DNA from: Pseudomonadales bacterium
Lineage (GTDB): Bacteria; Patescibacteriota; Microgenomatia; UBA1400; PJMF01
Assembly (NCBI GenBank): GCA_020632255.1
Contig: JACKFX010000002.1
Location: 82,905 to 146,904, forward strand
Length of the DNA stretch: 64,000 bases
Direction of reading: 5' to 3'
Below the pieces are notes generated by a model. The model did no database searches, was not told the DNA's origin, and was given only the letters and a program-made list of their open reading frames with translations. The translations under genes and the position numbers were made by a program. Positions 18,188-53,525 of the stretch are shown one piece after another. Numbering within the stretch: position 1 is the stretch's first letter; every line of letters begins with the position of its first letter.

Positions 18188-18371
18188 GCTTCCTTTTCTA
18201 AGTGCACACCTGCTACGCGTGCATTTTACTGTTAGGTACAAAGACAAGACAGACGAAAAAATCGCCCTTCAAATCCAATCCTACTATATCAGAATGGAAC
18301 TTGCAAGGATGAAACTCGACGGATATATCAATAAATACACACTACTTACACATCTGGGAAAACAAATATAC

Positions 18372-20398: not shown

Positions 20399-20881
20399 GT
20401 GTCTATCTTACCAAAAAACAATTTTTTTCTACTCGTATTTTCCATTCTAATCTCTCAGTTAGCTGGAGTAATTGGTTCTTTTTTTTCTATTTCTTCTATT
20501 CCAACCTGGTACGCAACGCTCACTAAACCATTCTTCAATCCACCTAACTGGTTGTTTGGACCTGTCTGGATCACGCTCTATACGATGATGGGAATTTCGT
20601 TGTACTTAATTTGGCACACTGTCAAATCGAAAAAAAAGGATACACTGATTAAGCTCTTTCTTGGCCAGCTGGTGCTCAATGCATTGTGGTCGATTGTCTT
20701 TTTTGGAGCCAAACAACTAGGGTTAGCCATCATTGTGATTGGACTACTGTGGACGATGATTGTCTCCCTCATTAGAGGTCTCTTTCCACTCAATAGAACC
20801 GCCGCATGGCTCTTGGTCCCCTACATTGCTTGGGTGAGTTTTGCTGCCTTGCTCAATATTGCAGTCTGGTACTTAAACTAA
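20399..20881 (+). CDS. tspO: TspO/MBR family tryptophan-rich sensory protein (CrtK homologue)
   Basis: 160 aa, 5 TM. WYATLTKPFFNPPNWLFGPVWITLYTMMGISLYL matches the TspO N-terminal signature. Trp-rich. Confidence 0.8.
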   Translation: MSILPKNNFFLLVFSILISQLAGVIGSFFSISSIPTWYATLTKPFFNPPNWLFGPVWITLYTMMGISLYLIWHTVKSKKKDTLIKLFLGQLVLNALWSIVFFGAKQLGLAIIVIGLLWTMIVSLIRGLFPLNRTAAWLLVPYIAWVSFAALLNIAVWYLN

Positions 20882-20928: not shown

Positions 20929-22671
20929 TTATTGTGCTGTAGCATCATCACAAAGCTTCATCACAAGAGATCGCTCTGTTTCGTCGAACTGTGTGCTGTC
21001 ATAAACTCGAAGTGCCAGCTGGTCTTGTGGCTGGTATCGGGTCAGGTGATAATATTCTTTTACTGGCTTGATGCCATTAGGAAACATTTCCCCATCAGAT
21101 GCCGCCGAAATTAGTAAGCTATTTTCTTTTTTTAACATGCAGGGAGCGACATTTGATTTGACTGTAGTAATAGTAATATTTTCAACCCTTCCTAACCCAT
21201 TTATGTTACCGTGCTCACGTGTCTCAGCTAATGACTGAATATGTACTGGATCAATTAAGTTGTACCAAGCAAAAAAGATGTAGACCTGAGTGTCTGTTTC
21301 AGACATAAACACATTGTCATAGCCATGTTGTTTTACATAAATGTCTCTGGCTGCTTCCGAATAGAATCCATGCCAATACGGCTCTGACTGCTCGGGAAAG
21401 AGCAAGTAAAAGTCACGCAGATACAGTGCGACGTTAAACACCATGCCGAAAACTATTCCCAGCCAAATTGCCCAAGAAAAAACCGGATGAAGTTTCTTAG
21501 CAATCGCCTCATACAAAAAAACGATTCCTACTACAGTAAAATAAACCAAGGCAGGAACCATAATCAGCGCACGATTTCCGTTTGGAGCTCCGTTCGTCAA
21601 GCTTGATGGAATTGGAGAAACTAATAACCATGCCAAGAAAAACCACCAGGTTGAATCTTTCTTTCCAAACATAAGTCCCAAAAATAAAAAGGGGATAAAG
21701 AAATACAACAATGAACCATGCTCATAAAATGCATAAGCCGGACTTTGATTAGAGTGTGGGAATAAAAACCCAGGACTAAAGTGGCTTAAGTATTGAGTGA
21801 AAAACAGATCAAAAATGTAAATCCCTTTATTATGAAATACTCTTATCAATGGCAACCCAGTCACCACACTTCTATAAATACCCTTCTCAACCTGAGCATG
21901 AGCAACGTCTTTATTCCAAAAAAACACTGTGCGAGCTCGATCACCAGCGGAACTCCCGAATGTTGCAACAAATATTAACAAAACTGATAATCCGCCCGCT
22001 AAAAAAACTGCAACATTTTCTTGAAAGTACCTTTTAACATTTCCTGAGTAGGTAAAAAAACACTCATGCACCACAATCAATAGTGGTACAAAAAAGCGTG
22101 AGGCATTATAGGTGTACATTGCTAACAAAAAGAAAAATATACCTATTAATCTTTTTTTATACGCATGTATTTCTTGAAAAAAAGCTAAACCAATCAACAA
22201 AAAACTCAACGAAACCATAGGGTCAAATGCGATCCGACTGTAATGCATGTGCCATGGTGTAATAGCCATTATCACCGCCGCCAAAGCACCACTAAAGCTT
22301 GTAGTGTGCTTTTTGACTATATAATAAAACGCTACAACTCCTAAAGATGCTAATAGTACTACTGGCAATCGAGCAAAAAATTCATTGACTGAGAACAGTG
22401 TAAAAAATGGAATCATTAAATAACTTAATAGAGCTGGCTTAAAATCTCCAAAGGCTTCCAAAAAAATAGGCATCGAAACCCCCCACTCATCTTTACCTGT
22501 TTTAAGAATTGAATACGCGTTGTAGGCATAAGACGCCTCATCCCACTGAAATCCCCAAGGAATATGTCCAAGCATAAAAACTCTCAAAACAAAAGCAAAC
22601 AAAAAAATCCCAGCAGGGAGGGTCAATAGATTAAACAATTTCTTAGCCATAATTCTGATAGTAACACTCAA
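20929..22671 (-). CDS. GT-C glycosyltransferase, family 39/83-like (PMT/ArnT-type). The start is probably MAKK at 22650.
   Basis: 580 aa, more than 10 TM. The N-terminal loop carries the DE motif (FQWDEASYAY) typical of PMT/ArnT GT-C enzymes. Its N-terminal 110 aa are duplicated at 28313..28792. Confidence 0.7.
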   Translation of the reverse strand: MSVTIRIMAKKLFNLLTLPAGIFLFAFVLRVFMLGHIPWGFQWDEASYAYNAYSILKTGKDEWGVSMPIFLEAFGDFKPALLSYLMIPFFTLFSVNEFFARLPVVLLASLGVVAFYYIVKKHTTSFSGALAAVIMAITPWHMHYSRIAFDPMVSLSFLLIGLAFFQEIHAYKKRLIGIFFFLLAMYTYNASRFFVPLLIVVHECFFTYSGNVKRYFQENVAVFLAGGLSVLLIFVATFGSSAGDRARTVFFWNKDVAHAQVEKGIYRSVVTGLPLIRVFHNKGIYIFDLFFTQYLSHFSPGFLFPHSNQSPAYAFYEHGSLLYFFIPFLFLGLMFGKKDSTWWFFLAWLLVSPIPSSLTNGAPNGNRALIMVPALVYFTVVGIVFLYEAIAKKLHPVFSWAIWLGIVFGMVFNVALYLRDFYLLFPEQSEPYWHGFYSEAARDIYVKQHGYDNVFMSETDTQVYIFFAWYNLIDPVHIQSLAETREHGNINGLGRVENITITTVKSNVAPCMLKKENSLLISAASDGEMFPNGIKPVKEYYHLTRYQPQDQLALRVYDSTQFDETERSLVMKLCDDATAQ

Positions 22672-22760: not shown

Positions 22761-24281
22761 TTAATGTGTATTCTGCTGCCACGTACCTTGTGGCGTATTG
22801 CGTCTAATTGGTGACGGATCGAGTGCCTGAAACTGAACCACATCCTCAACACTTCTGAACACCAGTGACAAAATAATATCTTCTGTCAGGTTGTGGACAT
22901 GGAAGGGAATAGTGGGAACGCCATACGGCAAGTGCCGCATGTGAGCTTTTTTAATCCCACCCTCAACAAATGATGGCATTTGGAATGGCAACATTTTGTT
23001 GTCGAGGTACTTGGTCCGAGCTGAAGCCTCTCCGCCGTATGGCTTAAAGTACTCACCGTCTTCGTCTACGTAATACAGCATACCACCAGGAGACTCAACC
23101 GTACCGCCAGCTACTGCGCGAGAGACACCAATGCCAGAAGCTCCCAAAGCAAGTGAGGTAGCAATATGATCACTCGCACCACCTTCGACAATAATCGGGA
23201 TCGAAACTTGGCCTCGTAACTCCCACAATAAAATTGGCCAGTCAATCACACTGCCACTGCGGACCCCGGTAATACAGCGACCGCCGCCGCCAATACCAAT
23301 GTAGAGGCCATCTGCACCGGCTTCCTCAATTTGTTTGGCTTGGGTGACATCGACCACTTGGCCGGCAAAGATTTCAATCTCATCGCCAAAGGCTTTGCGC
23401 AGAGCTCTGACCGTGCGCACTACTGAGAGTCCTGGCTCTGGTGAGTAGACGCGGAAGGTCCGCACACCCACTTTGTAGAGTGCCTTTCCACGTACCAAGG
23501 CTTTTTGGGGATCGGCATCGAGCACACCCATGACGTTGTGCTTCCAGTGTTCGAGTAAAAATTTCTTCTCGTAGTAGCTGCGGCCAATCAGGACTTCACT
23601 CTCCTCTAAGGCCGTAAAGACTTGTTCTGCCAAAGCAACCTGTCGGGCAATTTCATTAAACGGACCATTACGCGGCACCCCCACCAGCGAGAGACACTGC
23701 GCCATAGTAGAGATAGCATAGACACTGCCCCACGCATCTGGCATAGCCGAACCAACCAAAATTGAACGAGCATACTTACCCAACTTTACAAAGGGACCGT
23801 GATTGAACCTAAACTTACGCGAAACCCGCTCGCGCTGGGAACCAACCACGCGAATACCTAAATCTGAAATAGACAGAGCTAAATCATCGGCAATAGTTTG
23901 TTCCATAACGGCACTGGCAACTTTGCCAGGAGCCACAAACTTCTTTCGTTGAACTTTTTTGAGCGCAGCAATCCGCTCGGGATGGTTAAAGACTTCCAAA
24001 AAGTACTGACGCACCCGAAGAATGCGGATCATCTCTTTGATCGGCACCATACCGCGCTGTTTATAGTCGAGGAAATCAAACGGGGTTTTGAGCAGTCCTT
24101 GGCTGGGATACGCACTGGAGTTTTCTTGACTTTCGACGTACCAGTACTTTAAGTAGTCAGGGAGATTTTTTTCAAAAGGCGTCAACTTTTCCGTAATAAA
24201 TGCTTCCCAGAGTTCTGAGTCGCGGAATGATGAAAATGGCAGCTCTTTTATGTGCATGTATCTGTGCAAATATGGTAGCAA
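22761..24281 (-). CDS. IMPDH/GMP-reductase family TIM-barrel protein; divergent, with a non-canonical N-terminal half
   Basis: 506 aa. The C-terminal half has the IMPDH-like phosphate-binding and catalytic-loop pattern (YIGIGGGGRCITGV, IIVEGGASDHIATSLALGASGIGVS, ESPGG). The N-terminal 250 aa lack recognisable IMPDH/CBS motifs. Confidence 0.45.
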   Translation of the reverse strand: MLPYLHRYMHIKELPFSSFRDSELWEAFITEKLTPFEKNLPDYLKYWYVESQENSSAYPSQGLLKTPFDFLDYKQRGMVPIKEMIRILRVRQYFLEVFNHPERIAALKKVQRKKFVAPGKVASAVMEQTIADDLALSISDLGIRVVGSQRERVSRKFRFNHGPFVKLGKYARSILVGSAMPDAWGSVYAISTMAQCLSLVGVPRNGPFNEIARQVALAEQVFTALEESEVLIGRSYYEKKFLLEHWKHNVMGVLDADPQKALVRGKALYKVGVRTFRVYSPEPGLSVVRTVRALRKAFGDEIEIFAGQVVDVTQAKQIEEAGADGLYIGIGGGGRCITGVRSGSVIDWPILLWELRGQVSIPIIVEGGASDHIATSLALGASGIGVSRAVAGGTVESPGGMLYYVDEDGEYFKPYGGEASARTKYLDNKMLPFQMPSFVEGGIKKAHMRHLPYGVPTIPFHVHNLTEDIILSLVFRSVEDVVQFQALDPSPIRRNTPQGTWQQNTH

Positions 24282-24385: not shown

Positions 24386-24457
24386 GGCCCCATCGTCTAT
24401 CGGCTAGGACGGCAGGTTCTCATCCTGCAAAGCGCGGTTCGATTCCGCGTGGGGTCA
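24386..24457 (+). tRNA. tRNA-Glu (anticodon CUC)
   Basis: Hand-folded cloverleaf. Acceptor GGCCCCA/TGGGGTC (one G-U pair). D-stem GTCT/GGAC with the GG in the D-loop. Anticodon stem GCAGG/CCTGC. Loop TTCTCAT with U33 and A37. 4-nt variable loop. T-stem CGCGG/CCGCG. T-loop TTCGATT. Discriminator A. CCA is not encoded. Confidence 0.8.
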
Positions 24458-24494
24458 CATACACGCATATGCACGAACATACATTGATATTCGT

Positions 24495-25565
24495 TTACAT
24501 AGCTTCCTTCATAATTTCCTCAATTTTTTGAATGAATTTTTGATTCGTTACTTCGTCTCTAATACTCACCCTAAAAAATGAGTCATCAAATCCATCAAAG
24601 TTTGAACCTATCACAACTGAGATACCTTTTTCAGATAATTTTTTTACAAACTGCTTTTCTGACAAGCTATTGGGTATTTTCGCAAATAAATTATTTGCTT
24701 CACTCGGGAAAATGGTAAATCCTATCTCTGTCAATTTATTTTGTAAAAATAATCTTTGTTTTGCAGTAACTTCCCTAGTTCTTTGGATAAATTCATCATC
24801 ATCTAATGCAACACAAGCTAACTGCTCACTAATACCACTAATCTGAAAAATAGGAGTTTCTTCTTCCAGTTTCTGAATAATGTTTTGATTTGCCACCATA
24901 AAACCAATCCTGAGTGTTGCCAAGCCAAATCCTTTTGATAAGGTTCGAAGCACAATTAGATTTTTTTGATTTCCAATCTCACCAATAACAGATTTGCCTC
25001 CGAATTCGATATTAGCCTCATCTACAACCACTAGCACATTTTTAGGTACTTGATTGATAAATTGCATAATTTTGTTTTTAGGTAAAACTGATCCAGTAGG
25101 ATTATTTGGATTACATAAAAAGATCATTTTTGTGTTGTCAGAGATGACATTTATTATTCCTTCTAAATCAACTCCCAAGTCATCTGTCATTTCTACAGAT
25201 AAAACATTCAACCCTGCTAATTCAGAACAAACTGCAAACATTGGAAATGTTAGCTTTGGAATAATAACCTCATCACCAACTGTGCAAAAAACTTTTGGCA
25301 AATCATTGATGATCGATTCAGATCCATTTGCAACAAAAAAATTATCTATGTTTAGCAAAAACTTTTCTGAAAGTTTTTTTCGCAGTTTTTTACCATTTGG
25401 TGATGGGTAATCATTGAAATCCACCCGCATCTGTTTTAGAGCACTAGAAACCATAGGAGAACATCCTAATGGATTCTCGCTCAAAGACACATCTATTGGT
25501 CTTTTTTCAGTTAGAGCATAAAGTTTTTTCATCGCTCTTGGCAGATTTAGTATATTTTTTTTCAT
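24495..25565 (-). CDS. PLP-dependent aminotransferase class I/II, histidinol-phosphate aminotransferase-like
   Basis: HisC-like motifs NPNNPTG, VVVDEAN and LRTLSKGFGLATLRIG. The track start is a GTG at 25583. The ATG at 25565 has an AAGGA SD. Confidence 0.7.
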   Translation of the reverse strand: MKKNILNLPRAMKKLYALTEKRPIDVSLSENPLGCSPMVSSALKQMRVDFNDYPSPNGKKLRKKLSEKFLLNIDNFFVANGSESIINDLPKVFCTVGDEVIIPKLTFPMFAVCSELAGLNVLSVEMTDDLGVDLEGIINVISDNTKMIFLCNPNNPTGSVLPKNKIMQFINQVPKNVLVVVDEANIEFGGKSVIGEIGNQKNLIVLRTLSKGFGLATLRIGFMVANQNIIQKLEEETPIFQISGISEQLACVALDDDEFIQRTREVTAKQRLFLQNKLTEIGFTIFPSEANNLFAKIPNSLSEKQFVKKLSEKGISVVIGSNFDGFDDSFFRVSIRDEVTNQKFIQKIEEIMKEAM

Positions 25566-25591
25566 TTTTTCCTTTCCACGCACAAAAAAAC

Positions 25592-28312: not shown

Positions 28313-28792
28313 CTACAAACTTACCTCGTACCTATTTCTCCAAGTAATTGAATTGACCTGAAGTCTGGATCTTCCAAAGCAAGCACTGTGTGAAGCAGTG
28401 TTGACTTTCCCAAACCCCAAGGGTCCAAAAAAAGAAGTATGTTTTTTTACGATGTAGTAAAAAGCTATTATTCCAGCACTGGCTAACAGTGCAACCGGAA
28501 GACGAGCATAGAACTCATTAACTGTAAAAAAGCTAAAAAATGGAATCATCAAATAGCTCAGCAGTGCTGGCTTAAAGTCCCCAAATGCTTCAAGGAATAC
28601 TGGGAACGATACACCCCATTCATCTTTACCTGTCTTAAGAATTGAGTATACATTGTATGCATACGATGCCTCATCCCACTGAAATCCCCAAGGTATTCTA
28701 TCAAGAAAAAAAATACGTAGGGCAAGAGCGAACAAAAATAGTACCACGGGAATACTAGTAATAAGGAGCTCATTCTTTTTCATATAGCCCAT
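28313..28792 (-). pseudogene. Truncated paralogue (N-terminal about 110 aa) of the GT39-like glycosyltransferase at 20929..22671
   Basis: The protein segment FLDRIPWGFQWDEASYAYNVYSILKTGKDEWGVSFPVFLEAFGDFKPALLSYLMIPFF matches 22671-gene residues FMLGHIPWGFQWDEASYAYNAYSILKTGKDEWGVSMPIFLEAFGDFKPALLSYLMIPFF. Nucleotide identity is about 80% over roughly 250 bp. Similarity ends after KKHT and the ORF finishes in unrelated sequence. Confidence 0.65.
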
Positions 28793-28831
28793 AGCACCAC
28801 TTGAGGTATCTCACTGTTAGTCCCAGTGAGA

Positions 28832-29902
28832 TTATTTCTCTCTCTCTGCAACAAAACGAGTCATCACCATCAGCTGCTTTTTAAACTCTTTCGAAACGGG
28901 TAGTTTGTTTGTTTTTGTAGCAATGCTATGTATGTAGGTATCGATCTTCTTCTGCATTATTTCTGTCACACCAAACTCATCATGTAACTGCTGAATACTA
29001 TGAATTTCTTGTTGAGTTAAAGCTTGTTTTCCATACAAAGCGCTCACTTCTGTTCGTTGTTTTTTAGGAAGTTTAGAAAGCGCTTTAAAAAAGTAGTATC
29101 GGTGCATGGTTTTTTTATTTTCTATCACATCCCCGCCGACTGGTTTCCCGGTAACCATCTCATCTCCAAACAAACTTAAGTGGTCATCTCTAATTTGAAA
29201 AATCATCCCGATAGACTCCAAAATGGCTTCAAGATCTTTGAGCGCATTTTCAGAAACTCCACACAGTAATCCTGCGGCAAGAACCGGCATCACAAACGTG
29301 TAGCGAGCGGTTTTATATTTGTAGACATTCTCAATTTCTTTCAGTTTATTACTCTGACTCATTTCATGAGCAAACACCACATCTTGCCATTGAGCAAAAC
29401 CAACGTGAGCATATTCTTGAGCCATGAAATACCAAACTTTTTGAGCATCATGTACTACCGAACCAATTTGTTCAAAGGCCAAGAAAAAAACAATATCTGT
29501 GGCACACATAACTGCACTCGGAGCATATACACCTGGTCGTCTAAACAACTGTTGTTGCGCATGTTTATATTCTTTTGAATGTAGTGCCACCATACCTCTA
29601 CGGGAATCGTCTTGATCCATAAAATCATCTTGAATAAGCAAAGAACTGTGAATCAGCTCGATACCAGCTGCAACTGGGAGATATTTTTCTAAAGAAGCGT
29701 CTGGATCAAACTCAAAAACTGCTTCGAGAAATAGGGACCCACGAACCGTCTTTCCTGATTGTACAAATAATTCCAAATATTCAAATAACGAAGAAGTAAA
29801 TTGATGAGCCACAAACGCTTTTCGCTTGCTTTGTAAAAGAGAAAGCAGGTATGTATCAATATCGTGTTTATGTCTCAAAAAAGTCAGAACATTTTCTGGC
29901 AT
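28832..29902 (-). CDS. crtE: Polyprenyl diphosphate synthase (probable GGPP synthase, CrtE-like)
   Basis: 356 aa. First Asp-rich motif LIQDDFMDQDDSRRG, second Asp-rich motif FQIRDDHLSLFGD, a KT residue pair, and GK..G.D. Lies in an operon with the carotenoid genes. Confidence 0.7.
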   Translation of the reverse strand: MPENVLTFLRHKHDIDTYLLSLLQSKRKAFVAHQFTSSLFEYLELFVQSGKTVRGSLFLEAVFEFDPDASLEKYLPVAAGIELIHSSLLIQDDFMDQDDSRRGMVALHSKEYKHAQQQLFRRPGVYAPSAVMCATDIVFFLAFEQIGSVVHDAQKVWYFMAQEYAHVGFAQWQDVVFAHEMSQSNKLKEIENVYKYKTARYTFVMPVLAAGLLCGVSENALKDLEAILESIGMIFQIRDDHLSLFGDEMVTGKPVGGDVIENKKTMHRYYFFKALSKLPKKQRTEVSALYGKQALTQQEIHSIQQLHDEFGVTEIMQKKIDTYIHSIATKTNKLPVSKEFKKQLMVMTRFVAEREK

Positions 29903-30560
29903 AGAGAGCCTTTACTATCCAGAGATACAAAAGTGCGGCATACCCAAAATCCTCAATTGGAATAGTGCCCACCAGTGCCCCGGTTTTATATATATCAGTA
30001 TAGAGAACGATTGGTAAAGATGTCAGGTAGTAATTAAAAAGTAATGTTGTAAAAAGTGTAAAAAGTAAACCAATAGTAACTGCTGTTTGATTCAATAACC
30101 GTGTACCAGTAAGTGCAAGTCCTAATACTACGATAACCGTGTACCATTTTTCCTGAACAAAAGAAAAGTACAGCCCCACTACAAGAGAAGTTCGATATAA
30201 AAGACTCAGTGCCACTGACACCTTTCTTGGGATTACAATCTGTTTATCTGGGATATGATCATGCAAATTCTTTAAAAAAGTGACTAATGCATAGGGTACC
30301 GTCACAAAAAAAAGGAGCTCTTCAATGGGAAGCCTCAAGAATGGTACATGAGTAAACCCGAGCACAAAGGTGGGGTTAAAACTCCACCACACATCGGTAA
30401 CCAAATAATCCCACACAATAAAAACCAATGAAATCGGAAGAAAGCTGAAAACTTCAGTTTTTGTTGGCACCTTCATTTTTGGGTAGAGCATCTTTCCTAG
30501 TATCAAAGAAGTCAGAACCACAAGATGAAAAAAGAAATAAGCAAAATGTGAGATCTGCAT
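29868..30560 (-). CDS. Lycopene cyclase domain protein, fused CrtYc/CrtYd type
   Basis: 230 aa, about 6-7 TM. Two internal repeats each carry a PxEE/PxED motif (LPIEELLFF and IPIEDFGY), characteristic of heterodimeric-type lycopene cyclases. Confidence 0.6.
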   Translation of the reverse strand: MQISHFAYFFFHLVVLTSLILGKMLYPKMKVPTKTEVFSFLPISLVFIVWDYLVTDVWWSFNPTFVLGFTHVPFLRLPIEELLFFVTVPYALVTFLKNLHDHIPDKQIVIPRKVSVALSLLYRTSLVVGLYFSFVQEKWYTVIVVLGLALTGTRLLNQTAVTIGLLFTLFTTLLFNYYLTSLPIVLYTDIYKTGALVGTIPIEDFGYAALLYLWIVKALYARKCSDFFET

Positions 30561-30562
30561 GA

Positions 30563-31474
30563 TTACCTGAAAGCCTCTCGTAACGCGACTACCAATAACG
30601 TACCAAACACGCGATACTTACTTGGTTTGACTTTTTTTCTGAATACAATGTGGGGGTCAGCCTCGATTTGATCTGCCGTCCATGCATAGAGCCGTGCCGC
30701 TGTCGCAATAGGAATGCGGTATCTGTATGGAATATACCCATATCCTTTTTCTGCCTCGGTCTGAGTAATTCTATAGAGAGAAATTTCATCCCGAATGAAT
30801 GCTGCAAATTGGTGATGTCGGTTTGAAGTTTCAGGAATATCACACAACTTACTCAACCCATACTTCTCGAGCACCTCACTAGCCATGTAGGTGCGATGTA
30901 ACTCACAGTCTTCGTGAATGTCTCTAATAAAATTTATTTGCTGCATCGCAGCCCCTTGCTTACGAGCTGCTATTTGTGCCTGCTTTGGTAATCCTAAAAT
31001 TTGACTCATCATCAATCCAATCACTTCGGCACTACCATAAATATACTGATTCACTTCTTTGCGGGTTGTATATCTAATCCAGTCCCCATCTGCTGATAGA
31101 TCACTCATCATCGAATATAAAAAGGCATGTACCCATAAAAATGAAATATGATATGCAAACATTAGTTCTACAAACGGTTGAATAATATCAGTGTATTCAG
31201 TTCTCTGGTGATACTCGGCAACTAGATGCCGTCCAGCCTTCCAAGAACTAGAAACTTTTTTAGCAAGCGCGTAGTACTCACAAATCCTTTGGGTTTCTTG
31301 AACAAACGCAGCAAATGTTTCAGGCTGCTGGGGCACTTCATCAACAAAGTCGTCAGCTGTTCGAACATACGCATAGAGTGTCGCCACCTTTTCCCAGGTG
31401 TCTTTAGGGAAAAACAAACTACTATAAAAATAGGTAGTACTAGCATTCTTAAAAATGAGTTTTTTTCTTGACAT
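30563..31474 (-). CDS. crtB: Phytoene synthase (squalene/phytoene synthase family)
   Basis: 303 aa. YAYVRTADDFVDE (first Asp-rich motif), GSAEVIGLMM, and QGAAMQQINFIRDIHED (second motif). Confidence 0.8.
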   Translation of the reverse strand: MSRKKLIFKNASTTYFYSSLFFPKDTWEKVATLYAYVRTADDFVDEVPQQPETFAAFVQETQRICEYYALAKKVSSSWKAGRHLVAEYHQRTEYTDIIQPFVELMFAYHISFLWVHAFLYSMMSDLSADGDWIRYTTRKEVNQYIYGSAEVIGLMMSQILGLPKQAQIAARKQGAAMQQINFIRDIHEDCELHRTYMASEVLEKYGLSKLCDIPETSNRHHQFAAFIRDEISLYRITQTEAEKGYGYIPYRYRIPIATAARLYAWTADQIEADPHIVFRKKVKPSKYRVFGTLLVVALREAFR

Positions 31475-32976
31475 TACGCACTATCTTTTTGAATTTCATC
31501 AATAACATACTGTGCAGAAAGCAGCACCATCGGCACCCCGATTCCTGGTTGAGTAAACTGTCCAGCAAAATAGAGATTCGATAACTGCTTCGCTTTCATT
31601 CGAGGTCGCATAAACACGGACTGCAGCAACGAATGCGATAGTCCCAGAGCATTGCCTTTGTAAGCGTTGAACTCATGAGCAAAATCTTTTTGAGCAAAGA
31701 TTTTTTTATACACAATATGCTTTTGAATTTCAGCTCCTGTTGTCGCCTCAACGTGATCAAGTACGTGCTCCACGTACTCATCAACTCCGTGCTGCTTTGT
31801 TTGGACACTCACAGGAACCAGTATAAACAGGTTTTCTGCATTCTTAGGTGCCACTGTATGGTCTGTAACTGATGGAGCACAAACGTAATAACAGGGTTTT
31901 TTTGGAAACTCAGTAGAATTTTGAATCGTACTAAAATGATCATTCCAATCATCCTGGAAATAAAAGTTGTGATGCTGCAACTCAGGAATTTTCTTGGAAA
32001 GACCAAGATATACTAACACACTCGAAATTGCATATTCTCTGTTTTCCCAGTAGTCTTTAGAGTACTCTTTGTACTCATTTGGAAGCAGATGTATATCGAA
32101 GTAGGCATAATCGGCAGTAGTTACAAAGATGTCAGCATCATATGTTCCCTGTGTCGTATCCACGGAAGTAACTCGCTTTGTTTCATCGTCAATGTGTACG
32201 CTCGTAACAGCTTCTTCCGTCTTGATAGTGACTCCAAATTCTTTGCATAGTGCTTCCAAAGCCTTGGGTAACTGACCAATGCCTCCCTCTGGATACCAAA
32301 TTTTTCCTTTAAAATCTGAGGCAATTAAAATGCTATAGAGAGCTGGTGTTCTCTTTGGAGATCCACCTAGAAACACGGTATGAAACTGAAGAATTTTTTG
32401 TATCAACGGGTGTGATAGTTGTGTCGTGATAAATCGCTCATAACTTTGAAACGGATTAAACTGGCTGAGAAGCCGTAATCCGGCTAACATTGTTTTTGGA
32501 GTAAGCAATGAAAGAAACGAGTCATACTTTCGTGCCAGTAACTCTATAGAAAGTGTATAAGCGACGTTCGTTTTGGTAATCAAAGAAACAAGCTTTGCTC
32601 TGCTTCCTGGCTCAAGAGTCTCAAAAAGTCTTAAGTTTTTTTGTATATTTGAAACAATATCAATTGGTTTGTGGGAATCAGAAAAGACTCGATACTTTGT
32701 CGATAGCTCACGTAAACTGTAGTAGTCACTACTTTTTTTCCCAACAGAAGCAAAAAATGACTCGATCACTTCTGGCATCATGTACCATGACGGACCCATG
32801 TCGAAAGTGAACCCTTTCTGCTTAAAAACTCGAGCGCGGCCACCAAGGTCTTTGTTTTTCTCAATCAGAATGACTGAATACCCACGGTACGCTAAGCCTG
32901 CCGCAGTGGCTAGGCCAGCTAAACCACCTCCTATCACAACGCATTTTTTTTGCTCTGAATCAGGTATACTTTTCAT
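31474..32976 (-). CDS. crtI: Phytoene desaturase (FAD-dependent, CrtI family)
   Basis: 500 aa. N-terminal Rossmann VVIGGGLAGLATAAGLAYRGYSVILIEKNKDLGGRA, then FDMGPSWYMMPE. The C-terminal end has a CrtI-like pattern. Its TAA stop overlaps the crtB ATG as TAATG. Confidence 0.85.
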   Translation of the reverse strand: MKSIPDSEQKKCVVIGGGLAGLATAAGLAYRGYSVILIEKNKDLGGRARVFKQKGFTFDMGPSWYMMPEVIESFFASVGKKSSDYYSLRELSTKYRVFSDSHKPIDIVSNIQKNLRLFETLEPGSRAKLVSLITKTNVAYTLSIELLARKYDSFLSLLTPKTMLAGLRLLSQFNPFQSYERFITTQLSHPLIQKILQFHTVFLGGSPKRTPALYSILIASDFKGKIWYPEGGIGQLPKALEALCKEFGVTIKTEEAVTSVHIDDETKRVTSVDTTQGTYDADIFVTTADYAYFDIHLLPNEYKEYSKDYWENREYAISSVLVYLGLSKKIPELQHHNFYFQDDWNDHFSTIQNSTEFPKKPCYYVCAPSVTDHTVAPKNAENLFILVPVSVQTKQHGVDEYVEHVLDHVEATTGAEIQKHIVYKKIFAQKDFAHEFNAYKGNALGLSHSLLQSVFMRPRMKAKQLSNLYFAGQFTQPGIGVPMVLLSAQYVIDEIQKDSA

Positions 32977-33031
32977 TGCGCTTTATAATACCATGCATTT
33001 GCTTATGTGATAATGTATAGTAAAGCTAGCA

Positions 33032-34069
33032 ATGCAACTTTCACTCTCCGCTTCTATGTCTAATGATGAGATCGCAGAAGTCTTTTCGTTCATCTCTCAA
33101 ATACTAGGTACCGATCCACGAAATCGCTACCGAGCCAGCGCCTACGAAGAAGCCGGAATAGTCATTCAGCACCAAAATGAACAGCTGCTGGATGTCTTCA
33201 AAAAACATACTGCTAACCCCGCAGCATTTACTGAGTATCTTGACTCACTTCCCGGAATCGGAGAGTCTATCAGCAAAAAACTTACCGAACTTTTCACCAC
33301 TGGAAACATCGCATCATTTCAAAAATATGTCGCTAAACTCCCTGGAGGCATGTATCCACTCATGAAGATACATGGCATCGGAGCCAAAAAGGCTCAAAAA
33401 TTAGCCGAAAATTTTGATCTTGATGACCCACAAACAGCTGTCTCAAAATTACTCACTAAAGCCAAACATGGCCAGGTTCAAGGACTGACTGGCTTTGGAG
33501 AAAAAAGTGAACAAGCGCTTATCGAAGCCCTGGAATTACAGCATGGGAAAGCACGTATTCCCTACAACGATGCTTTTTCTGTAGCTAAGAAATTTAAAAC
33601 TTCACTAGAAGACTCAGGATTAACTTCGCGAATTGTGTTTTTAGGAAGCCTGCGTCGCGAAGCCCCTACCGTTGGAGATATCGACGTGGGTGTTGCCACT
33701 CACTCACCCAAAAAAGTTGCCGACTTAATCACTTCACTGCCCTTCGTTAAAAAAACCTTAGTTGCCGGAGATAACTTAGTCAGCGTCATTACTGATGAAG
33801 GTTGGCAGGTTGATACCAAATTTGCACCACTTGCAGAGTGGGGAAGCTTTATTCAACATTTCACTGGTGATAAACAACACAACATAGTGCTGCGCCAAAT
33901 TGCTCTCAAGCAAGGTTTCTCTCTGTCAGAGCATGGTATAAAAATCAAAGTTACCGGTGAAGTTAAGACCTTTGAATCGGAAGATGACTTCTATGCCTTC
34001 CTCGGCTTTGCTCCAATTCCGCCAAGTGAGCGTGTGGGGCGTGATGAGTTTGAAAAGTATAAAAAATAA
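33032..34069 (+). CDS. DNA polymerase X family (Pol beta-like, no PHP domain)
   Basis: 345 aa. HhH motifs LPGIGESISKKL and IHGIGAKKAQKL. Nucleotidyltransferase motif GSLRREAPTVGDIDVGV. Thumb region ending FLGFAPIPPSER. Confidence 0.75.
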   Translation: MQLSLSASMSNDEIAEVFSFISQILGTDPRNRYRASAYEEAGIVIQHQNEQLLDVFKKHTANPAAFTEYLDSLPGIGESISKKLTELFTTGNIASFQKYVAKLPGGMYPLMKIHGIGAKKAQKLAENFDLDDPQTAVSKLLTKAKHGQVQGLTGFGEKSEQALIEALELQHGKARIPYNDAFSVAKKFKTSLEDSGLTSRIVFLGSLRREAPTVGDIDVGVATHSPKKVADLITSLPFVKKTLVAGDNLVSVITDEGWQVDTKFAPLAEWGSFIQHFTGDKQHNIVLRQIALKQGFSLSEHGIKIKVTGEVKTFESEDDFYAFLGFAPIPPSERVGRDEFEKYKK

Positions 34070-34070
34070 A

Positions 34071-34595
34071 CTAAAGTTCGCAATTCAACCAAAAGCCCTT
34101 ATGATTTTCTCGTGCACTCCGCTCTGATTCCCTAAAAACATCTTGAAACTTCACATCTGGCGGATAACTCGTCGCCTGCGCAAAGCCTTCGGCAACCATC
34201 ACTTCATTTACAAACACATCACCAACATAGACATACCCTAACAGCCGACCATATCGATCGGTTTCTGAAACATCTTTCTCAAGTCGTACTTTGTTATCTA
34301 ACACTAATTCCGAAAGCTTGTTGCTTGCCGCATCAAAATAGCACTCTCCTTTTTCGGGGGTATTTATCCCAATCAACCGCACCTTCTGACCACTTTCAAT
34401 TTCGAAGGTATCCCCATCAACGATGCGGGTAACCAAGTAAGTGTCGGACATACTTTCTTCAGGTTGCTGAGTTTCAGCGACAACATCTACCACTTCTTCA
34501 ATTGCTTTCTCTGATCGAGAATTCACAGACACACCCAATCCAGTCAAGAGCACAATTATGAGAGAAACAACCAGCTGCCTTTGTTTTTTAGTCAT
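34071..34595 (-). CDS. Thermonuclease (staphylococcal nuclease, SNase-like), secreted or membrane-anchored
   Basis: 174 aa. N-terminal TM/signal. VDGDTF, VRLIGINTPE, DRYGRLLGYVY and a G.A motif characteristic of the SNase fold. Confidence 0.8.
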   Translation of the reverse strand: MTKKQRQLVVSLIIVLLTGLGVSVNSRSEKAIEEVVDVVAETQQPEESMSDTYLVTRIVDGDTFEIESGQKVRLIGINTPEKGECYFDAASNKLSELVLDNKVRLEKDVSETDRYGRLLGYVYVGDVFVNEVMVAEGFAQATSYPPDVKFQDVFRESERSARENHKGFWLNCEL

Positions 34596-34660
34596 AGCTT
34601 CATTCTATATGAACCACCATTCTTGAAAACCCGCACAACAAGGTATATGCTGAAGATATT

Positions 34661-35044
34661 ATGACAGGATACATCGATAACATCGAACAACTCACCCAAA
34701 GTAACAGCAATTTTCGCCACGTGCTCTTCACTGCCCAACACTTGCAATTAGTGCTCATGAGCTTGAAGCCAAAAGAAGATATTGGTATGGAAGTACACGC
34801 CACGACCGATCAATTTTTTCGCGTTGAAGCTGGGACAGGCAAAGTCATCATGAATGGTGAAGAAAGAGAAGTTGGTGATGGAGATGTTGTTATCGTCCCG
34901 GCTGGAACCAAACACAACATCATCAATAGCTCTTCAGAAAATGAACTTAAACTCTATACTATCTACGCTCCACCTCACCATGTTGATGGCGTGATTCACG
35001 TCACCAAAGCTGAAGCTGAGGCAGATACTACCGATCATCTCTAA
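34661..35044 (+). CDS. Cupin domain protein
   Basis: 127 aa. Cupin two-motif pattern (G.EVHAT...E, then VVIVPAGTKHNIIN). Confidence 0.55.
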   Translation: MTGYIDNIEQLTQSNSNFRHVLFTAQHLQLVLMSLKPKEDIGMEVHATTDQFFRVEAGTGKVIMNGEEREVGDGDVVIVPAGTKHNIINSSSENELKLYTIYAPPHHVDGVIHVTKAEAEADTTDHL

Positions 35045-35234
35045 ACTAAGTACTGAAAACTCTTTCGACCCCATGTGGTGTCATACCTGAGTACCCCTTC
35101 TTGTGAGCAAGCAATTCCTCTTGAGTAATCCATTTGATAGCAATGATTTCTGCACTACTCGGTCGGAGTGTGTCTCCATTCCACTCCACTTGCACTTTAC
35201 CAATAGCAAGACTCAGTTGTTGCGTATGAAACTA

Positions 35235-35651
35235 TCATGTGCCATCACTCTCAGTATTTTTGCGTTTGCCTTTGCGATGACGTTTTCTTCTCTTTCTCTT
35301 TTTCTTTTTCTGGCCATCTAAAGTTATTTGTAAATCGATGTTAAACAGAGCCCACGCGATCTGTGCTAGCTGGATATCCGACCAGGTCCACTGATCTGCA
35401 TCTGCCTTGTCATGACACTTTTCACACACAATCTGTAAGTTCTCCATCCTAGTAAGTAAATGCGGTGCCAAAATTGGATTTTTTCGAGCCAAAAAATACG
35501 GCACTAAATGGTGGCCAAATAAGCGATCACTGCTTCCACACACTTCACAAACATTTCCAACTTTTTCCTTCCGAAGATCAATCAACTCTCGCGAAAAGTT
35601 GTAGGGTTCTCTGTTTCGAGGCTTTTTCATCACTACGCATTGTACCAGCAT
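35235..35651 (-). CDS. HNH endonuclease with a poly-basic C-terminal tail. Probable start MKKPRN at 35630. Terminated by a TGA TAG double stop.
   Basis: HNH core VCEVCGSSDRLFGHHLVPYF...NLQIVCEKCHDKAD. The C-terminus GQKKKKRKRRKRHRKGKRKNTESDGT is encoded by an A-rich run. Confidence 0.65.
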   Translation of the reverse strand: MLVQCVVMKKPRNREPYNFSRELIDLRKEKVGNVCEVCGSSDRLFGHHLVPYFLARKNPILAPHLLTRMENLQIVCEKCHDKADADQWTWSDIQLAQIAWALFNIDLQITLDGQKKKKRKRRKRHRKGKRKNTESDGT

Positions 35652-35688
35652 CTAAGTTTTTCTCAGAGCAGAATGCTATACTCAAACT

Positions 35689-36198
35689 ATGTATGGAAAA
35701 ATCGTCACTGTATCTGACAAAATGCAAAAACAGTACCACTATGTTCTTTCAGAACCTACGGGACAGAACTTTCACCCTGAATTTCAACCTGACCTTACTC
35801 CCAAAGAAATGCTTGAACTAGGCGTCTTTGGAGGCAAATACATGACTGACTGTTCAGATGAGTTCCCAAAAGATTGGTTCAAAAATGCAAAACTAAGTCC
35901 GAAAAAAAAGGATCCCTCACTCAACTTTTTTGGGATTGATGCCAGCCAGCCTTTATCTGTGTGGCAAAAAAAGGGTTGGATTTATGAAGAAGATCCACGT
36001 GGATGGTTCCAGTGGTACTGTCGGTACTATATGGGTAGACGCATCCCCGATGAGGATGAGCGTCAGATCAGGCGTTGGAAAGCGTTTAGAAGACACATCG
36101 GTCAAATAATCGCCAACTGTCAAAAAGGCGACCTGAGTTGCCGTCCTCGTCAACGCCAAGCACTACTTCATTGGGCATATGACAGCAGAAGACTATAA
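35689..36198 (+). CDS. Conserved hypothetical protein (Trp/Arg/Tyr-rich motif GWFQWYCRYYMGRR)
   Basis: 169 aa, soluble. I recognise the motif-rich region as conserved but cannot assign a family from memory. Confidence 0.45.
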   Translation: MYGKIVTVSDKMQKQYHYVLSEPTGQNFHPEFQPDLTPKEMLELGVFGGKYMTDCSDEFPKDWFKNAKLSPKKKDPSLNFFGIDASQPLSVWQKKGWIYEEDPRGWFQWYCRYYMGRRIPDEDERQIRRWKAFRRHIGQIIANCQKGDLSCRPRQRQALLHWAYDSRRL

Positions 36199-36282
36199 AT
36201 CCACTTTATTAGTGATTACTGAACATTTTTTTATTGTATACTTACATACATCGTACTATCTGAAATAGATTTATTTACAATC

Positions 36283-38526
36283 ATGTTTCGTAAACTTCTC
36301 ATCCCGTTTGTTATCATTGCTTCTATCTTTGTTAGCTATGTCTCATTATTTCATAACGACTCCGTTGAAAACGTTGCTCTCATTTCACAACTCTTTGGCA
36401 CACATGGCATCTGGATCTTAAACCTGCTGTTAGTAGTGATGGTTATCCCTATTTCACTTTCACTTATGGAAATCATTACCGGTGAGTTTGGCCTAGAACG
36501 CTTCAAACGAATTGCTGCTATCAGTATTGGTATGACTACGCTTAGTTTTGCTGCTTTGCAATTTATCGGAGCAATTGCAACGTCTTCTGCAGAAGGTGCC
36601 ACTGTCGTAGTAGAAGTCTTTCAACAAATTGCCCACTTTGCCACTCATGGTGAACTAGAACAATACGGCCTGGTGGGAATGCTCACGTCAGATGCTTCCG
36701 GTCCTTGGAACTCCAGCATCTTCCCACTGCTCATTATGATTATATGGTTAATCCGTCGAAAAACAGTTGGCATCGAAACAAAGCAACTTCATGTTCCGAT
36801 GATTTTTCAGTGGATTTTGTACGCTCAACAATTTTTCTTCGGTCTTGATTTACAGTACACGCTACTGGAAATTATCTTGATGGGTATTACTGGATCACTG
36901 TTTGTCTGGGGAATGATCAACTTCCTCGTTTCTATGTTTAGAGAAGCAGAGCAAGCAGAAGCCAAAGCAGCAGCAGAAATACCTGAAAAAGAAGAAGCCA
37001 CTAAGAAACAAAACTTCTATAGCCGTATGATTCATGGTATTTCCCACCTAACTTTTGAAGTCCTAACTTTCAATCCCTTTAACAAAAAAGTAGATACTGC
37101 AGATGAAAAAATTCAAAAAAAACGTGGTGGCTACGGAAACATCGGTCGCGGTTACGTTACCTTGAACGGGCTACAATTAACGCTAGCCATGACCGTTGCC
37201 ATGTTTGCCCTTGTCAGTGCAACTCAATTTCTTGCAGTCCAACTACGCATGAGTGATGCCGAAGCTGCGCTCTTTGGTACGGCTGGTCTTACGAGCGCTC
37301 CAGAAGCATTTGTTGCTCTTGCTGTCGGTCCCTATATTAACGCACTCCTCCTCGTAGGGAGCAACATCATTGATGGTTGGATGTCTGCTCTAGGACAAAC
37401 TGTCCTCTTAGGATATGCCGAAATCGCGAGTGGTGGTCATATTACCGCAATACCCTTGCATCCAGCTATTCGCTATCTCACTTTTCTCTCATGGACACAG
37501 GGCATGCTCGTTTGGGCTGCATTAACACTCTATGCTCACACCATTCACACTACTTTAAATAAAAAAATCATTTCCATTACCTCAATAGTTTTGCTGTCAG
37601 TTGCCATCTTGTACTACTTTGGTGGGGCATGGTTTAGTGCTCAAGCCTTGGGATATGGCGCTGAGTATGCTCAAGAGAGCTTTATCGTCAAATCGATTGG
37701 TAGCATTATTAACCTATTAACAATGATAAAAGCACAACAAATCGTATTGGTACTCAACATTATTGGCCTGGGAGCATTGGCTTTCTGGTGGAGTGGAATT
37801 CTGGAAAAACTCTCCTCACTTCTTCAAACAGAAGAGGACCAACGCATCTCTGGAGCAATCACTGAATTACATGGAAAGATTTCAAAGCATTTAGCACGAG
37901 AAAATCAACAAGTTATCATCGTTCTTGATACGAGTTCTGACATGAACGAGAAAACATTTTTTTTCAAAAACAAATGGATAGATCTTGTCTTCCGTCAAGC
38001 TGCTGCCTTTGGCCTAATTCTTGATGATGATGGCCATATTCCGGTCTATACGACCAGTGATGGTGCAGTTAAAAAGATCAAACACTTGCTCACCCAAAAA
38101 AATGCGGATACCTTTATTGAAAAATTCGTTGGCAGAAACACCGCAGGAAAAGTGAGCTACACTCCTGTCATTTCTGAAATATTTGCCGAATACAAAGATA
38201 CCCTCACAACTGAGCATGACCCAGTGCTCGTACTCTTTATCACTGCTGGAGGTGGCACCGATGCTGCAGAAGCAAACAAGCTTTTCACAAAAATGGAGTC
38301 CTATCCCATTTTTGTGCAGTTTATTGAAATTCACGGTGACAAACCACATAAAAATGCTCAAGTAGTCACCGGAATTGCGAATAAACCTGGAAAAATCATC
38401 GATAACTCTGGTATTTCTTCACTACCATTGTTTAGGTTAACCGACGCAAGTCAAATTGTCGAAGAAGTCCTCAACGAATACCCAGGCTACCTTGAAAAGG
38501 CTCAAAAAGCAGGAATTCTCGACTAA
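36283..38526 (+). CDS. Polytopic membrane protein with a C-terminal von Willebrand factor A-like domain
   Basis: 747 aa. About 12 hydrophobic helices in the first 480 aa. C-terminal IIVLDTSSDM (MIDAS-like), VLFITAGGGTD and IFVQFIEIHGD follow the vWA beta-strand pattern. Confidence 0.55.
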   Translation: MFRKLLIPFVIIASIFVSYVSLFHNDSVENVALISQLFGTHGIWILNLLLVVMVIPISLSLMEIITGEFGLERFKRIAAISIGMTTLSFAALQFIGAIATSSAEGATVVVEVFQQIAHFATHGELEQYGLVGMLTSDASGPWNSSIFPLLIMIIWLIRRKTVGIETKQLHVPMIFQWILYAQQFFFGLDLQYTLLEIILMGITGSLFVWGMINFLVSMFREAEQAEAKAAAEIPEKEEATKKQNFYSRMIHGISHLTFEVLTFNPFNKKVDTADEKIQKKRGGYGNIGRGYVTLNGLQLTLAMTVAMFALVSATQFLAVQLRMSDAEAALFGTAGLTSAPEAFVALAVGPYINALLLVGSNIIDGWMSALGQTVLLGYAEIASGGHITAIPLHPAIRYLTFLSWTQGMLVWAALTLYAHTIHTTLNKKIISITSIVLLSVAILYYFGGAWFSAQALGYGAEYAQESFIVKSIGSIINLLTMIKAQQIVLVLNIIGLGALAFWWSGILEKLSSLLQTEEDQRISGAITELHGKISKHLARENQQVIIVLDTSSDMNEKTFFFKNKWIDLVFRQAAAFGLILDDDGHIPVYTTSDGAVKKIKHLLTQKNADTFIEKFVGRNTAGKVSYTPVISEIFAEYKDTLTTEHDPVLVLFITAGGGTDAAEANKLFTKMESYPIFVQFIEIHGDKPHKNAQVVTGIANKPGKIIDNSGISSLPLFRLTDASQIVEEVLNEYPGYLEKAQKAGILD

Positions 38527-38852
38527 CCTTTCATTGCTTGTAGTCAAAAGTGAACTGCGCTGCTCTTTCTTGCAATCGCACTACACAATATCCCAAAGGC
38601 TTAGCCATTAGGAGTTGCCTTTGGTGCAGTTGCTCATGGAATTAATGGCGCTTCTTTACTCACCGCTCACTAAAAAGACCGTAGTCTCCATCGGTGAACC
38701 TAAGCTTATCCCGGAAATACTTGATTTAAACGAGTTACCAGACAAAGAAACGCTCGAAAAAAGTAAAGAAGGTGCAAAAATCATCACAGCTGCACACATG
38801 TATCGTTTGGCCGCACTTTTGCCACCAGAAAATCAAGGCTACTACTCGCTTG

Positions 38853-39527
38853 CTACAAAACCTTCGTAACCGCACTCAAAATTGTTTTCCGATCCACGAT
38901 ATGCATTCCAGTTTTTTGTGCAGTACGAATGACATCTTTTTCTGATGGTTCAAAAACAAATGCTTCGTCAGCTTCTTTCAGCATGGCTATATCACCAGAA
39001 CTATCACCAAAAACCAGCAGCTTACTGTCATTTGATTTGAACTTCTCAACCTCGGTGACTTTATCTGCTTGGTTTACTAAACGATCTATTGTGCCAGTAT
39101 ACACACCGCCATCGACTTCCAGAGTTGATCCTACTGCAGTCACACCCAAGACCTGTGCACATGCCTGGACTATTGGATCTAAAGACGCAGAAACAACTAC
39201 AATAGTGTAGTTGTGTTTTTTGAGCAACGATATAAGTTGCGGTACATACTCAAAAAAGTGTTGTTTTGAAAAAAAGTTATTCTGCCATTGCTCAACTTCA
39301 CTCACTCGTTTGCCTTTCAATACTTCTGCAGATAGTTTCATGGTCATCTCAGATGCTCTATTGTGAGGAATTACCTTACTGCTATATCCAAGAACTAAAA
39401 GAATTGCCTTCACCAGTAGGATTCCAGATATTTTTCGATTTGGTATTAAGTAACCAAACAAAAAGGTAGACATCGATACCCCGTCAAAAAGTGTTTTGTC
39501 TAGATCAAATACGGCAACTTTTTTCAT
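38853..39527 (-). CDS. HAD-superfamily hydrolase (subfamily IB, phosphoserine phosphatase-like)
   Basis: 224 aa. Motif I FDLDKTL, a Ser/Thr motif, a conserved Lys, and motif IV FGDSSGDIAML. Confidence 0.7.
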   Translation of the reverse strand: MKKVAVFDLDKTLFDGVSMSTFLFGYLIPNRKISGILLVKAILLVLGYSSKVIPHNRASEMTMKLSAEVLKGKRVSEVEQWQNNFFSKQHFFEYVPQLISLLKKHNYTIVVVSASLDPIVQACAQVLGVTAVGSTLEVDGGVYTGTIDRLVNQADKVTEVEKFKSNDSKLLVFGDSSGDIAMLKEADEAFVFEPSEKDVIRTAQKTGMHIVDRKTILSAVTKVL

Positions 39528-39537
39528 ACAATTCTAT

Positions 39538-45599: not shown

Positions 45600-45625
45600 T
45601 CTTGCAGTATAATACCAGGCGTACT

Positions 45626-52555: not shown

Positions 52556-52559
52556 CTCT

Positions 52560-53513: not shown

Positions 53514-53525
53514 AATTGAGATGTG

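Follow-up and report, generated by a model that had tools for sequence, protein, structure and literature searches.

We analyzed a 64,000-nucleotide stretch of contig JACKFX010000002.1 (hereafter, the window; GenBank assembly GCA_020632255.1, positions 82,905 to 146,904), deposited under the name Pseudomonadales bacterium, and focused on a putative carotenoid operon of four consecutive genes on its minus strand. The first gene, crtI (31474-32976), encodes a 500-amino-acid protein of the flavin adenine dinucleotide (FAD)-dependent phytoene desaturase family, and is followed by crtB (30563-31474, 303 amino acids), which encodes a phytoene-synthase-like enzyme of the type that condenses prenyl diphosphates head to head. 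The third gene, crtYcd (29868-30560, 230 amino acids), encodes an integral membrane protein of the CrtYc/CrtYd lycopene cyclase type with both domains fused into one chain, and the last encodes a trans-isoprenyl diphosphate synthase (IDS; 28832-29902, 356 amino acids), probably a geranylgeranyl diphosphate (GGPP) synthase in the role of CrtE/IdsA. As read directly from the sequence, crtI and crtB overlap by 1 nt ('gcgTAATGtca'), crtB and crtYcd are separated by 2 nt ('TAAtcATG'), and the stop codon of crtYcd (29868-29870) falls 35 nt within the IDS reading frame, which starts at 29902. This tight coupling argues for a single transcript of the four genes, whose translation would be coupled as well.

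Protein families and motifs of the four gene products

Three of the four proteins matched a curated family above its cutoff, and all four matched a Pfam family. CrtI had 421.8 bits to TIGR02734 (crtI_fam; cutoff, 238.1), with residues 13-499 aligned to profile positions 2-492 of 504, 110 bits to Pfam Amino_oxidase over residues 19-489, and 54 bits to NAD_binding_8. Its top NCBIfam model was NF058655, 'bifunctional phytoene desaturase/3,4-desaturase CrtID', at 545.3 bits (below the cutoff of 640), and the next specific matches were CrtD models; a literature search for 'CrtID' found nothing relevant. The protein aligned over its full length to the solved structures 4rep (the best match, deposited as a gamma-carotene desaturase) and 4dgk (a phytoene dehydrogenase). 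Its GxGxxG Rossmann motif for FAD binding, VIGGGLAGL (residues 14-22), shows no variation among six members of the clade, and the identical protein at NCBI is named 'phytoene desaturase'. For CrtI enzymes, the number of desaturation steps is known to range from two to six, depending on context (PMC7713294).

CrtB matched Pfam SQS_PSY (PF00494) with 147 bits (cutoff, 26) over residues 9-288, and among solved structures it was most similar to the phytoene synthase 5iys, with CrtM next. Both of its substrate-binding motifs rich in Asp, (A/I)D(D/N)xVD and NFIRDxxED (ADDFVD and RDIHED), are kept in the clade. None of the CrtB equivalog cutoffs (480-550) was reached by this protein (NF045921, 70 bits; NF042419, 62.5 bits; NF045686, 58.5 bits), and the HpnD and HpnC models scored slightly above the CrtB ones (92 and 80 bits), far under their own cutoffs of 250-280. 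The name CrtB is thus an assignment by family and context. As to context, crtB adjoins crtI in nearly all of the ~90 related loci, those of cultured pigmented Bacteroidota genera included. We infer GGPP (C20) as the substrate solely from the linked cyclase and the GGPP-synthase-like IDS.

The cyclase matched TIGR03462 (Lycopene_cyc) in two stretches, with 59.5 bits in total (cutoff, 39.4). Searched separately, residues 7-95 of the N-terminal half aligned to profile positions 2-88 of 89 (E = 2.3e-8), and residues 23-102 of the C-terminal half aligned to positions 7-86 of 89 (E = 4e-9). The two halves had no detectable similarity to each other by BLAST, and the two-domain nature is visible through profiles only. 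Each domain carries one copy of the PxE(E/D) motif that marks the CrtYc/CrtYd cyclase family, namely PIEE at residue 78 and PIED at residue 201, and across the six clade members these are invariant as PIEE and P(I/V/L)ED. No solved structure of this family was present in the PDB copy searched. With a strict threshold, a hydropathy scan detected just a handful of the membrane segments expected and was set aside, and the NCBI annotation of this protein reads 'hypothetical protein' only. The enzyme would close one or both ends of lycopene, that is, perform mono- or bicyclization.

The IDS matched Pfam polyprenyl_synt (PF00348) with 143.7 bits. Its first Asp-rich motif (FARM), LLIQDDFMDQDDSRRG, is of the DDxxD type without insertion (DDFMD), and the second (SARM) is DDHLS within an FQIRDD context, both conserved in the clade. 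The nearest solved relative was 3lk5 (E = 8e-23), deposited as a geranylgeranyl pyrophosphate synthase, and the equivalog models scored below their cutoffs (IdsA, 104.8 of 468 bits; GGPP_syn, 76.7 of 500; CrtE, 54.2 of 460). At the chain-length positions the protein has S at -5 (S, G or A in the clade) and L at -4, with no aromatic block, residues that fit a product of C20 or longer and are not diagnostic. By family and context, we assign it as probably a GGPP synthase.

The initial annotation of this locus had described four consecutive minus-strand genes joined by TAATG, a 2-nt gap and a 35-nt overlap, which the list of open reading frames (ORFs) and the sequence confirmed. The gene identities it proposed hold at the family level, given the profile searches (TIGR02734, SQS_PSY, TIGR03462 and polyprenyl_synt) and the solved relatives, and none of the ORFs was assigned to non-carotenoid paralogues. 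Its two-repeat PxEE cyclase indeed has two domains and PIEE in the first repeat, but the second repeat is PxED. The roles it gave to CrtB and the polyprenyl synthase agree with family and context, but not with any equivalog model at its cutoff.

Conservation of the operon and identity of the host

The CrtI homologues at 48-70% identity (P0001-P0025) group as one clade in a rough neighbor-joining tree, and gene contexts were inspected in eight of them. Motifs were compared in an alignment of the window operon with five relatives (37-70% identity), in which the FAD motif, the CrtB Asp-rich motifs, the cyclase motifs, FARM and SARM are all invariant. The order crtI-crtB-crtYcd-IDS with overlapping junctions was found in loci L086 (51% identity, on a 1.21-Mb contig), L088 (on a 320-kb contig), L089 and L090, and in four relatives the IDS gene likewise begins inside the cyclase gene (-20 to -38 nt). 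Three other relatives, L085 (70% identity), L095 and L096, have crtI-crtB-crtYcd without the IDS gene. Since the same adjacency was found again in dozens of loci, the operon is not a product of chance; likewise, four independent assemblies, each built from another sequencing run, and one metagenome-assembled genome (MAG) at NCBI agree at 100% identity over the 4145-bp operon with its flanks, so the arrangement is not an assembly accident.

Gene order is conserved on either side of the operon as well. L085 shares the block downstream of the operon in the window, with genes for a CAP protein, an NTP-transferase (84% identity) and ribosome recycling factor (RRF). L090 shares the upstream block, with genes for a tRNA-editing protein, a hydrolase, RmuC, methionyl-tRNA synthetase (MetRS), TatD and a 501-amino-acid protein (73% identity), and in this relative CrtI is 63% and MetRS 65% identical to the window proteins. 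The GC content of the operon genes is 0.375-0.411, compared with a mean of 0.417 ± 0.027 for the window genes, and their GC at third codon positions (GC3) is 0.32-0.37, compared with 0.368 ± 0.051. Codon-usage distances of the operon lie inside the range of the other 47 window genes, and the tetranucleotide distance from operon to window (0.0136) is close to the mean for 4.1-kb slices of the window (0.0137). On composition, codon usage, flanking synteny and a CrtI divergence similar to that of MetRS, the operon looks native, as the initial annotation had proposed from base composition.

To what organism the operon belongs is indicated by the names of the relatives. NCBI has records of a CrtI identical to that of the window from both a 'Candidatus Woesebacteria bacterium' and a 'MAG: Pseudomonadales bacterium', and the named relatives of MetRS are from Ca. 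Woesebacteria (100%) and from Ca. Pacebacteria and the 'Patescibacteria group' (60-67%). The window MetRS is of the short MetRS1 type and not of the gammaproteobacterial one, with 358 bits on 2csx and only ~108 bits on entries such as 1f4l and 6spn, the E. coli and Pseudomonas enzymes. Other gene content also fits the Candidate Phyla Radiation (CPR), including many proteins without a family, a sortase, PMT-type glycosyltransferases, a 2001-amino-acid Ig/beta-helix surface protein, SecDF and RRF. We conclude that the host is a Microgenomates-type CPR bacterium, in line with the Patescibacteria-type symbiont suspected at the outset, and does not belong to a lineage in which crt operons are routine. 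Further CPR-like MetRS relatives lie on contigs of ~1.08 Mb that are also labeled 'Pseudomonadales', and because several of them carry this label, it is probably an error. The NCBI records MCA9368799.1 and MCB9800903.1 (locus tag H6773_01855) combine the 'Pseudomonadales bacterium' label with a CPR-type MetRS and gene content. As a side observation, the MetRS ORF (45554-47050, plus strand, 498 amino acids) has ~25 N-terminal residues beyond its ~473-amino-acid relatives (95% covered), and its start is probably further downstream.

A block of ~8.7 kb (33032-41720) separates the operon from the tRNA-editing/RmuC/MetRS block, which lies within ~1.5 kb of crtI in L090. The block encodes a PolX without PHP domain (345 amino acids), an SNase, a cupin, an HNH endonuclease, a vWA-TerF-like protein, an HAD hydrolase and an ABC transporter, and looks like an insertion in the lineage of the window. 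On the other side, just downstream of the operon, a 159-amino-acid ORF (28313-28792, minus strand) has 73% identity over 124 amino acids to the N-terminus of a PMT_2-like glycosyltransferase (580 amino acids) encoded 6 kb away (20929-22671, minus strand). This truncated copy looks like a gene fragment at an old duplication or rearrangement breakpoint beside the operon.

Predicted pathway and competing explanations

We estimate a probability of about 80% that the four genes form a working operon for a C40 carotenoid, passed on vertically in a Microgenomates-type CPR bacterium. In the proposed pathway, the IDS would extend isopentenyl and dimethylallyl diphosphate (IPP and DMAPP) to GGPP, and CrtB would join two GGPP into phytoene. 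CrtI would then desaturate phytoene to lycopene, possibly on to 3,4-didehydrolycopene, and the CrtYc/d-type membrane cyclase would close one or both ends to give gamma- or beta-carotene (or torulene). The carotene would remain in the membrane and act there as antioxidant, photoprotectant or rigidifier, which would suit a cell with few oxidative defenses in aerated sludge; the cell seems to derive from aerated wastewater sludge. JAGQ-prefixed assemblies of HKST-UBA, an activated-sludge series, occur among the CrtI matches listed, and GCA_020429005.1, a MAG with this contig that is likewise JAGQ-prefixed, may belong to the series. The product is most likely a C40 cyclic carotene that would serve as a membrane antioxidant or photoprotectant, as far as sequence can tell.

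The probable source of IPP and DMAPP is a mevalonate pathway with its genes in another part of the genome; enzymes of this pathway occur in the majority of Microgenomates (PMC6107057). The initial annotation described the lineage as one that usually lacks isoprenoid and pigment pathways, which is wrong for Microgenomates, and carotenoid genes, mainly for bacterioruberin, are known from Patescibacteria (PMC9948471, PMC11484240); the operon is a smaller surprise for both reasons. Use of polyprenyl-phosphate carriers is apparent in the window itself, which encodes a decaprenyl-phosphate phosphoribosyltransferase and a WecA/MraY-like GT4 glycosyltransferase.

Several observations weigh against a functional C40 pathway in this host. 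No genes of the methylerythritol phosphate or mevalonate pathway for IPP formation were found in the ~85 kb examined, i.e., the window and ~10 kb past each of its ends, where the added sequence holds housekeeping, cell-wall and hypothetical genes only. The IDS gene is missing from the cluster in three of the relatives, as described above, and according to a freshwater survey the CPR classes, Gracilibacteria excepted, make isoprenoids of C10-C20 only (PMC9166423). The substrate and chain length are assigned by inference, since no CrtB, CrtE or GGPP synthase equivalog cutoff was reached and the chain-length positions of the IDS (-5 S, -4 L) are not diagnostic, and the taxonomic placement rests on best-hit names.

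Among the rival explanations, two share the pathway and differ in its end. CrtI could perform five desaturations and the cyclase act on one end only, yielding a monocyclic 3',4'-didehydro carotenoid of the torulene type. That CrtID is the top model of CrtI, followed by CrtD models, and that 4rep is its best solved relative would fit such a product, as would the variable step number of CrtI; the CrtID score is under its cutoff, however, and step number is not predictable from sequence alone. The nearest CrtI and CrtB outside the clade, among the matches listed, come from Spirochaetes, archaea and Bacteroidota, and monocyclic didehydro-carotenoids are known from the two bacterial groups of these. 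Yet no hydratase (CruF/CrtC), ketolase or hydroxylase gene lies in or near the operon, and we consider a torulene-type product somewhat unlikely. The other possibility is that beta-carotene serves as the precursor of retinal for a rhodopsin of the host or of its partner, a function at which the initial annotation had hinted. A crt set with a cyclase is what retinal producers require, rhodopsins or heliorhodopsins occur in some CPR, and there are Saccharibacteria with rhodopsins that lack blh (PMC9296517; PMC9166423). Against this, the CPR rhodopsins are mainly those of Saccharimonadia, with few in Dojkabacteria, ABY1, Gracilibacteria and Paceibacteria (PMC9166423), and searches of the window, of ~20 kb of added flanking sequence and of 8-10 kb on either side of the operon in the eight relatives found no Bac_rhodopsin, heliorhodopsin or Blh/BCD family. 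These loci lend the idea no support, and a retinal role is decidedly unlikely.

The two remaining explanations would change the pathway or the host. A C30 route from farnesyl diphosphate (CrtM/CrtN-like) or a squalene route (HpnD/HpnE-like) is suggested by HpnD and HpnC being the highest-scoring NCBIfam models of the SQS_PSY protein, by CrtM as its second-best solved relative, and by an IDS chain length that sequence does not settle. The Hpn scores are far below their cutoffs, however, the desaturase has 55.7 bits to HpnE (cutoff, 283) versus 422 to crtI_fam, and there is a single SQS_PSY gene where the Hpn route needs two. With a lycopene-cyclase gene fixed in the operon across the clade and a nearest solved IDS deposited as a GGPP synthase, we regard these routes as very improbable. 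Could the operon instead be foreign, through an assembly or binning artefact or through recent transfer from a pigmented bacterium? The 'Pseudomonadales' label of the NCBI MAG with identical proteins would point that way, and in a rough neighbor-joining tree of CrtI (distance-based and without resampling support) the CPR sequences of Dojkabacteria L071 and Saccharibacteria L018 fall outside the window clade, so that CrtI of different CPR groups do not form one clade. But the operon sits within contigs of 146-181 kb beside CPR-type genes for MetRS, RRF, SecDF, AspRS and RecJ, its junctions are identical in four assemblies, its composition and codon usage match the window, and its synteny and divergence track those of housekeeping genes. 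The label is shared by other CPR-like MetRS, the window MetRS is not of the E. coli type, and a foreign origin is extremely improbable.

Beyond the C40 operon itself, the whole Microgenomates-type clade might make its cyclic carotene alone, through its own mevalonate pathway, and use it either to reinforce the membrane in the manner of sterols or hopanoids, its cells being unable to make their own fatty acids, or as a precursor of retinal or other apocarotenoids exchanged with a partner. We think this quite unlikely. If true, pigment synthesis would be a retained core trait of an episymbiont lineage, not an accessory antioxidant.

Flanking features, related clusters and significance

Just 55 bp (32977-33031) separate crtI from the divergent PolX gene, and the operon is probably transcribed from this spacer. 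On the minus strand it holds a promoter-like site, TTATCA-17 nt-TATTAT with TG (32985-33013), a consensus match only; the number of promoter-like sites in the region was not above the expectation from shuffled sequences. The -10-like element ends 8 nt ahead of the crtI ATG, with no Shine-Dalgarno sequence there, a layout that points to an mRNA with no leader or almost none. Right behind the stop codon of the IDS gene, a hairpin with a 9-bp stem (28808-28832) marks a possible end of the operon. It is not a canonical operon terminator because its T-run is on the plus strand and not on the operon strand, and the counts of terminator-type sites in the region were not above chance in the promoter/terminator scan.

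Other genes in the window were noted in passing. A TspO/MBR gene (20399-20881, plus strand) lies 8 kb from the operon, with 163 bits in Pfam and 109 bits to NF047825 (below the cutoff of 180). TspO (CrtK) is a member of the Rhodobacter crt cluster; we rejected it as part of the operon system here, as none of the eight relatives has it close to the operon. The genes at 51500-54926 (plus strand) encode the WecA/MraY-like GT4, the decaprenyl-phosphate phosphoribosyltransferase (NF008978, 218.7 bits; cutoff, 207) and a PMT-family mannosyltransferase, and by annotation form a pathway for a polyprenyl-phosphate-linked glycan. The pathway is similar to the route to arabinan in actinobacteria, and to find it in a CPR genome seems unusual. 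Two composition outliers lie near one another, an aminotransferase gene (24495-25583, minus strand; GC 0.326, GC3 0.248) and a gene for a 506-amino-acid protein (22761-24281, minus strand; GC 0.492, GC3 0.497) that matches IMPDH in its C-terminal part only, with a tRNA-Glu(CTC) between them (24386-24458); the pair may be foreign DNA. The 2001-amino-acid predicted surface protein (12242-18247, minus strand) contains beta-helix, Big_13, Big_3_3 and fn3 domains, with a local GC of 0.46-0.47 at 11-14 kb, and may be an adhesin of an episymbiont.

Outside the clade, the CrtI matches listed from GTDB genomes had 37-42% identity and came from Spirochaetes, several archaeal phyla, Bacteroidota, two Saccharibacteria and one Dojkabacteria. 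For CrtB, the identity to the window protein was 37-44% in the spirochaete, archaeal and Saccharibacteria loci and 24-33% in Bacteroidota. The Dojkabacteria locus (L071, 9995-15418) has the layout of a bacterioruberin cluster, desaturase-UbiA-Caroten_synth(CruF)-desaturase-CrtB, and one Saccharibacteria locus (L018, 9986-14165) reads crtI-crtB-IDS-UbiA. Together with the rough tree, this is only an indication that carotenoid genes entered CPR, or were retained, more than once.

The families and the I-B-Y order of the window operon are like those of the crtI-crtB-crtYc/crtYd clusters of Actinobacteria, Bacteroidetes and Archaea, of the fused archaeal CrtY and of the thraustochytrid crtIBY (background on the lineage of the first three groups in PMC10016063). 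The clusters of these three groups have the same small membrane cyclase of the CrtYc/d type with PxE(E/D) motifs, and among the matches listed the window CrtI and CrtB are closest to spirochaete, archaeal and Bacteroidota sequences (~38-44% identity). What sets the window operon apart from that lineage is its CPR host, with a genome of ~1 Mb, and the fusion of the two cyclase domains in a bacterium. In addition, its IDS gene comes last and overlaps the cyclase gene, and the cluster is without blh, crtZ/W, crtX or regulator genes.

Within CPR, bacterioruberin genes (lyeJ-crtD-cruF) were reported from Patescibacteria of Lake Baikal (PMC9948471). These clusters share the CPR host, a CrtI-family desaturase and CrtB with the window, but they have an elongase and a hydratase where the window has a cyclase, and would lead to an acyclic C50 instead of a cyclic C40 product. 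No Caroten_synth family was found in the window, and its only UbiA protein was rejected as a lycopene elongase, being the decaprenyl-phosphate phosphoribosyltransferase of the glycan cluster, 22 kb from the operon. A Saccharimonas MAG from the built environment carries crtB, crtE and crtYf, for which an antioxidant role was suggested (PMC11484240). Like the window, it has a CPR terpene cluster with a Lycopene_cyc-domain protein, a likeness drawn by description only; it belongs to a different CPR class, and neither a conserved four-gene operon nor an evolutionary analysis is described for it.

The enzymes and the operon logic are already known, the CPR host is unusual for them but has precedents, and public annotation names the families of three of the four genes. 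Within the literature searched, two points appear to be new: a four-gene operon of the cyclase type that a Microgenomates clade has conserved and inherited vertically, and its contrast to the clusters of bacterioruberin type in other CPR. Public CPR MAGs also probably carry a mislabel, 'Pseudomonadales bacterium'. The operon is small enough for testing in E. coli, which makes it a simple experimental handle. The gain is ecological and evolutionary, not mechanistic: CPR bacteria are usually seen as metabolically minimal symbionts, and a carotene operon, conserved and apparently complete, adds a biosynthetic trait to one Microgenomates clade. CPR hold at least two types of carotenoid cluster, the cyclase type of the window and the bacterioruberin-like type of Dojkabacteria and Saccharibacteria. 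The operon is relevant to the question of how these cells deal with oxygen and light, and to the possible source of retinal for CPR rhodopsins.

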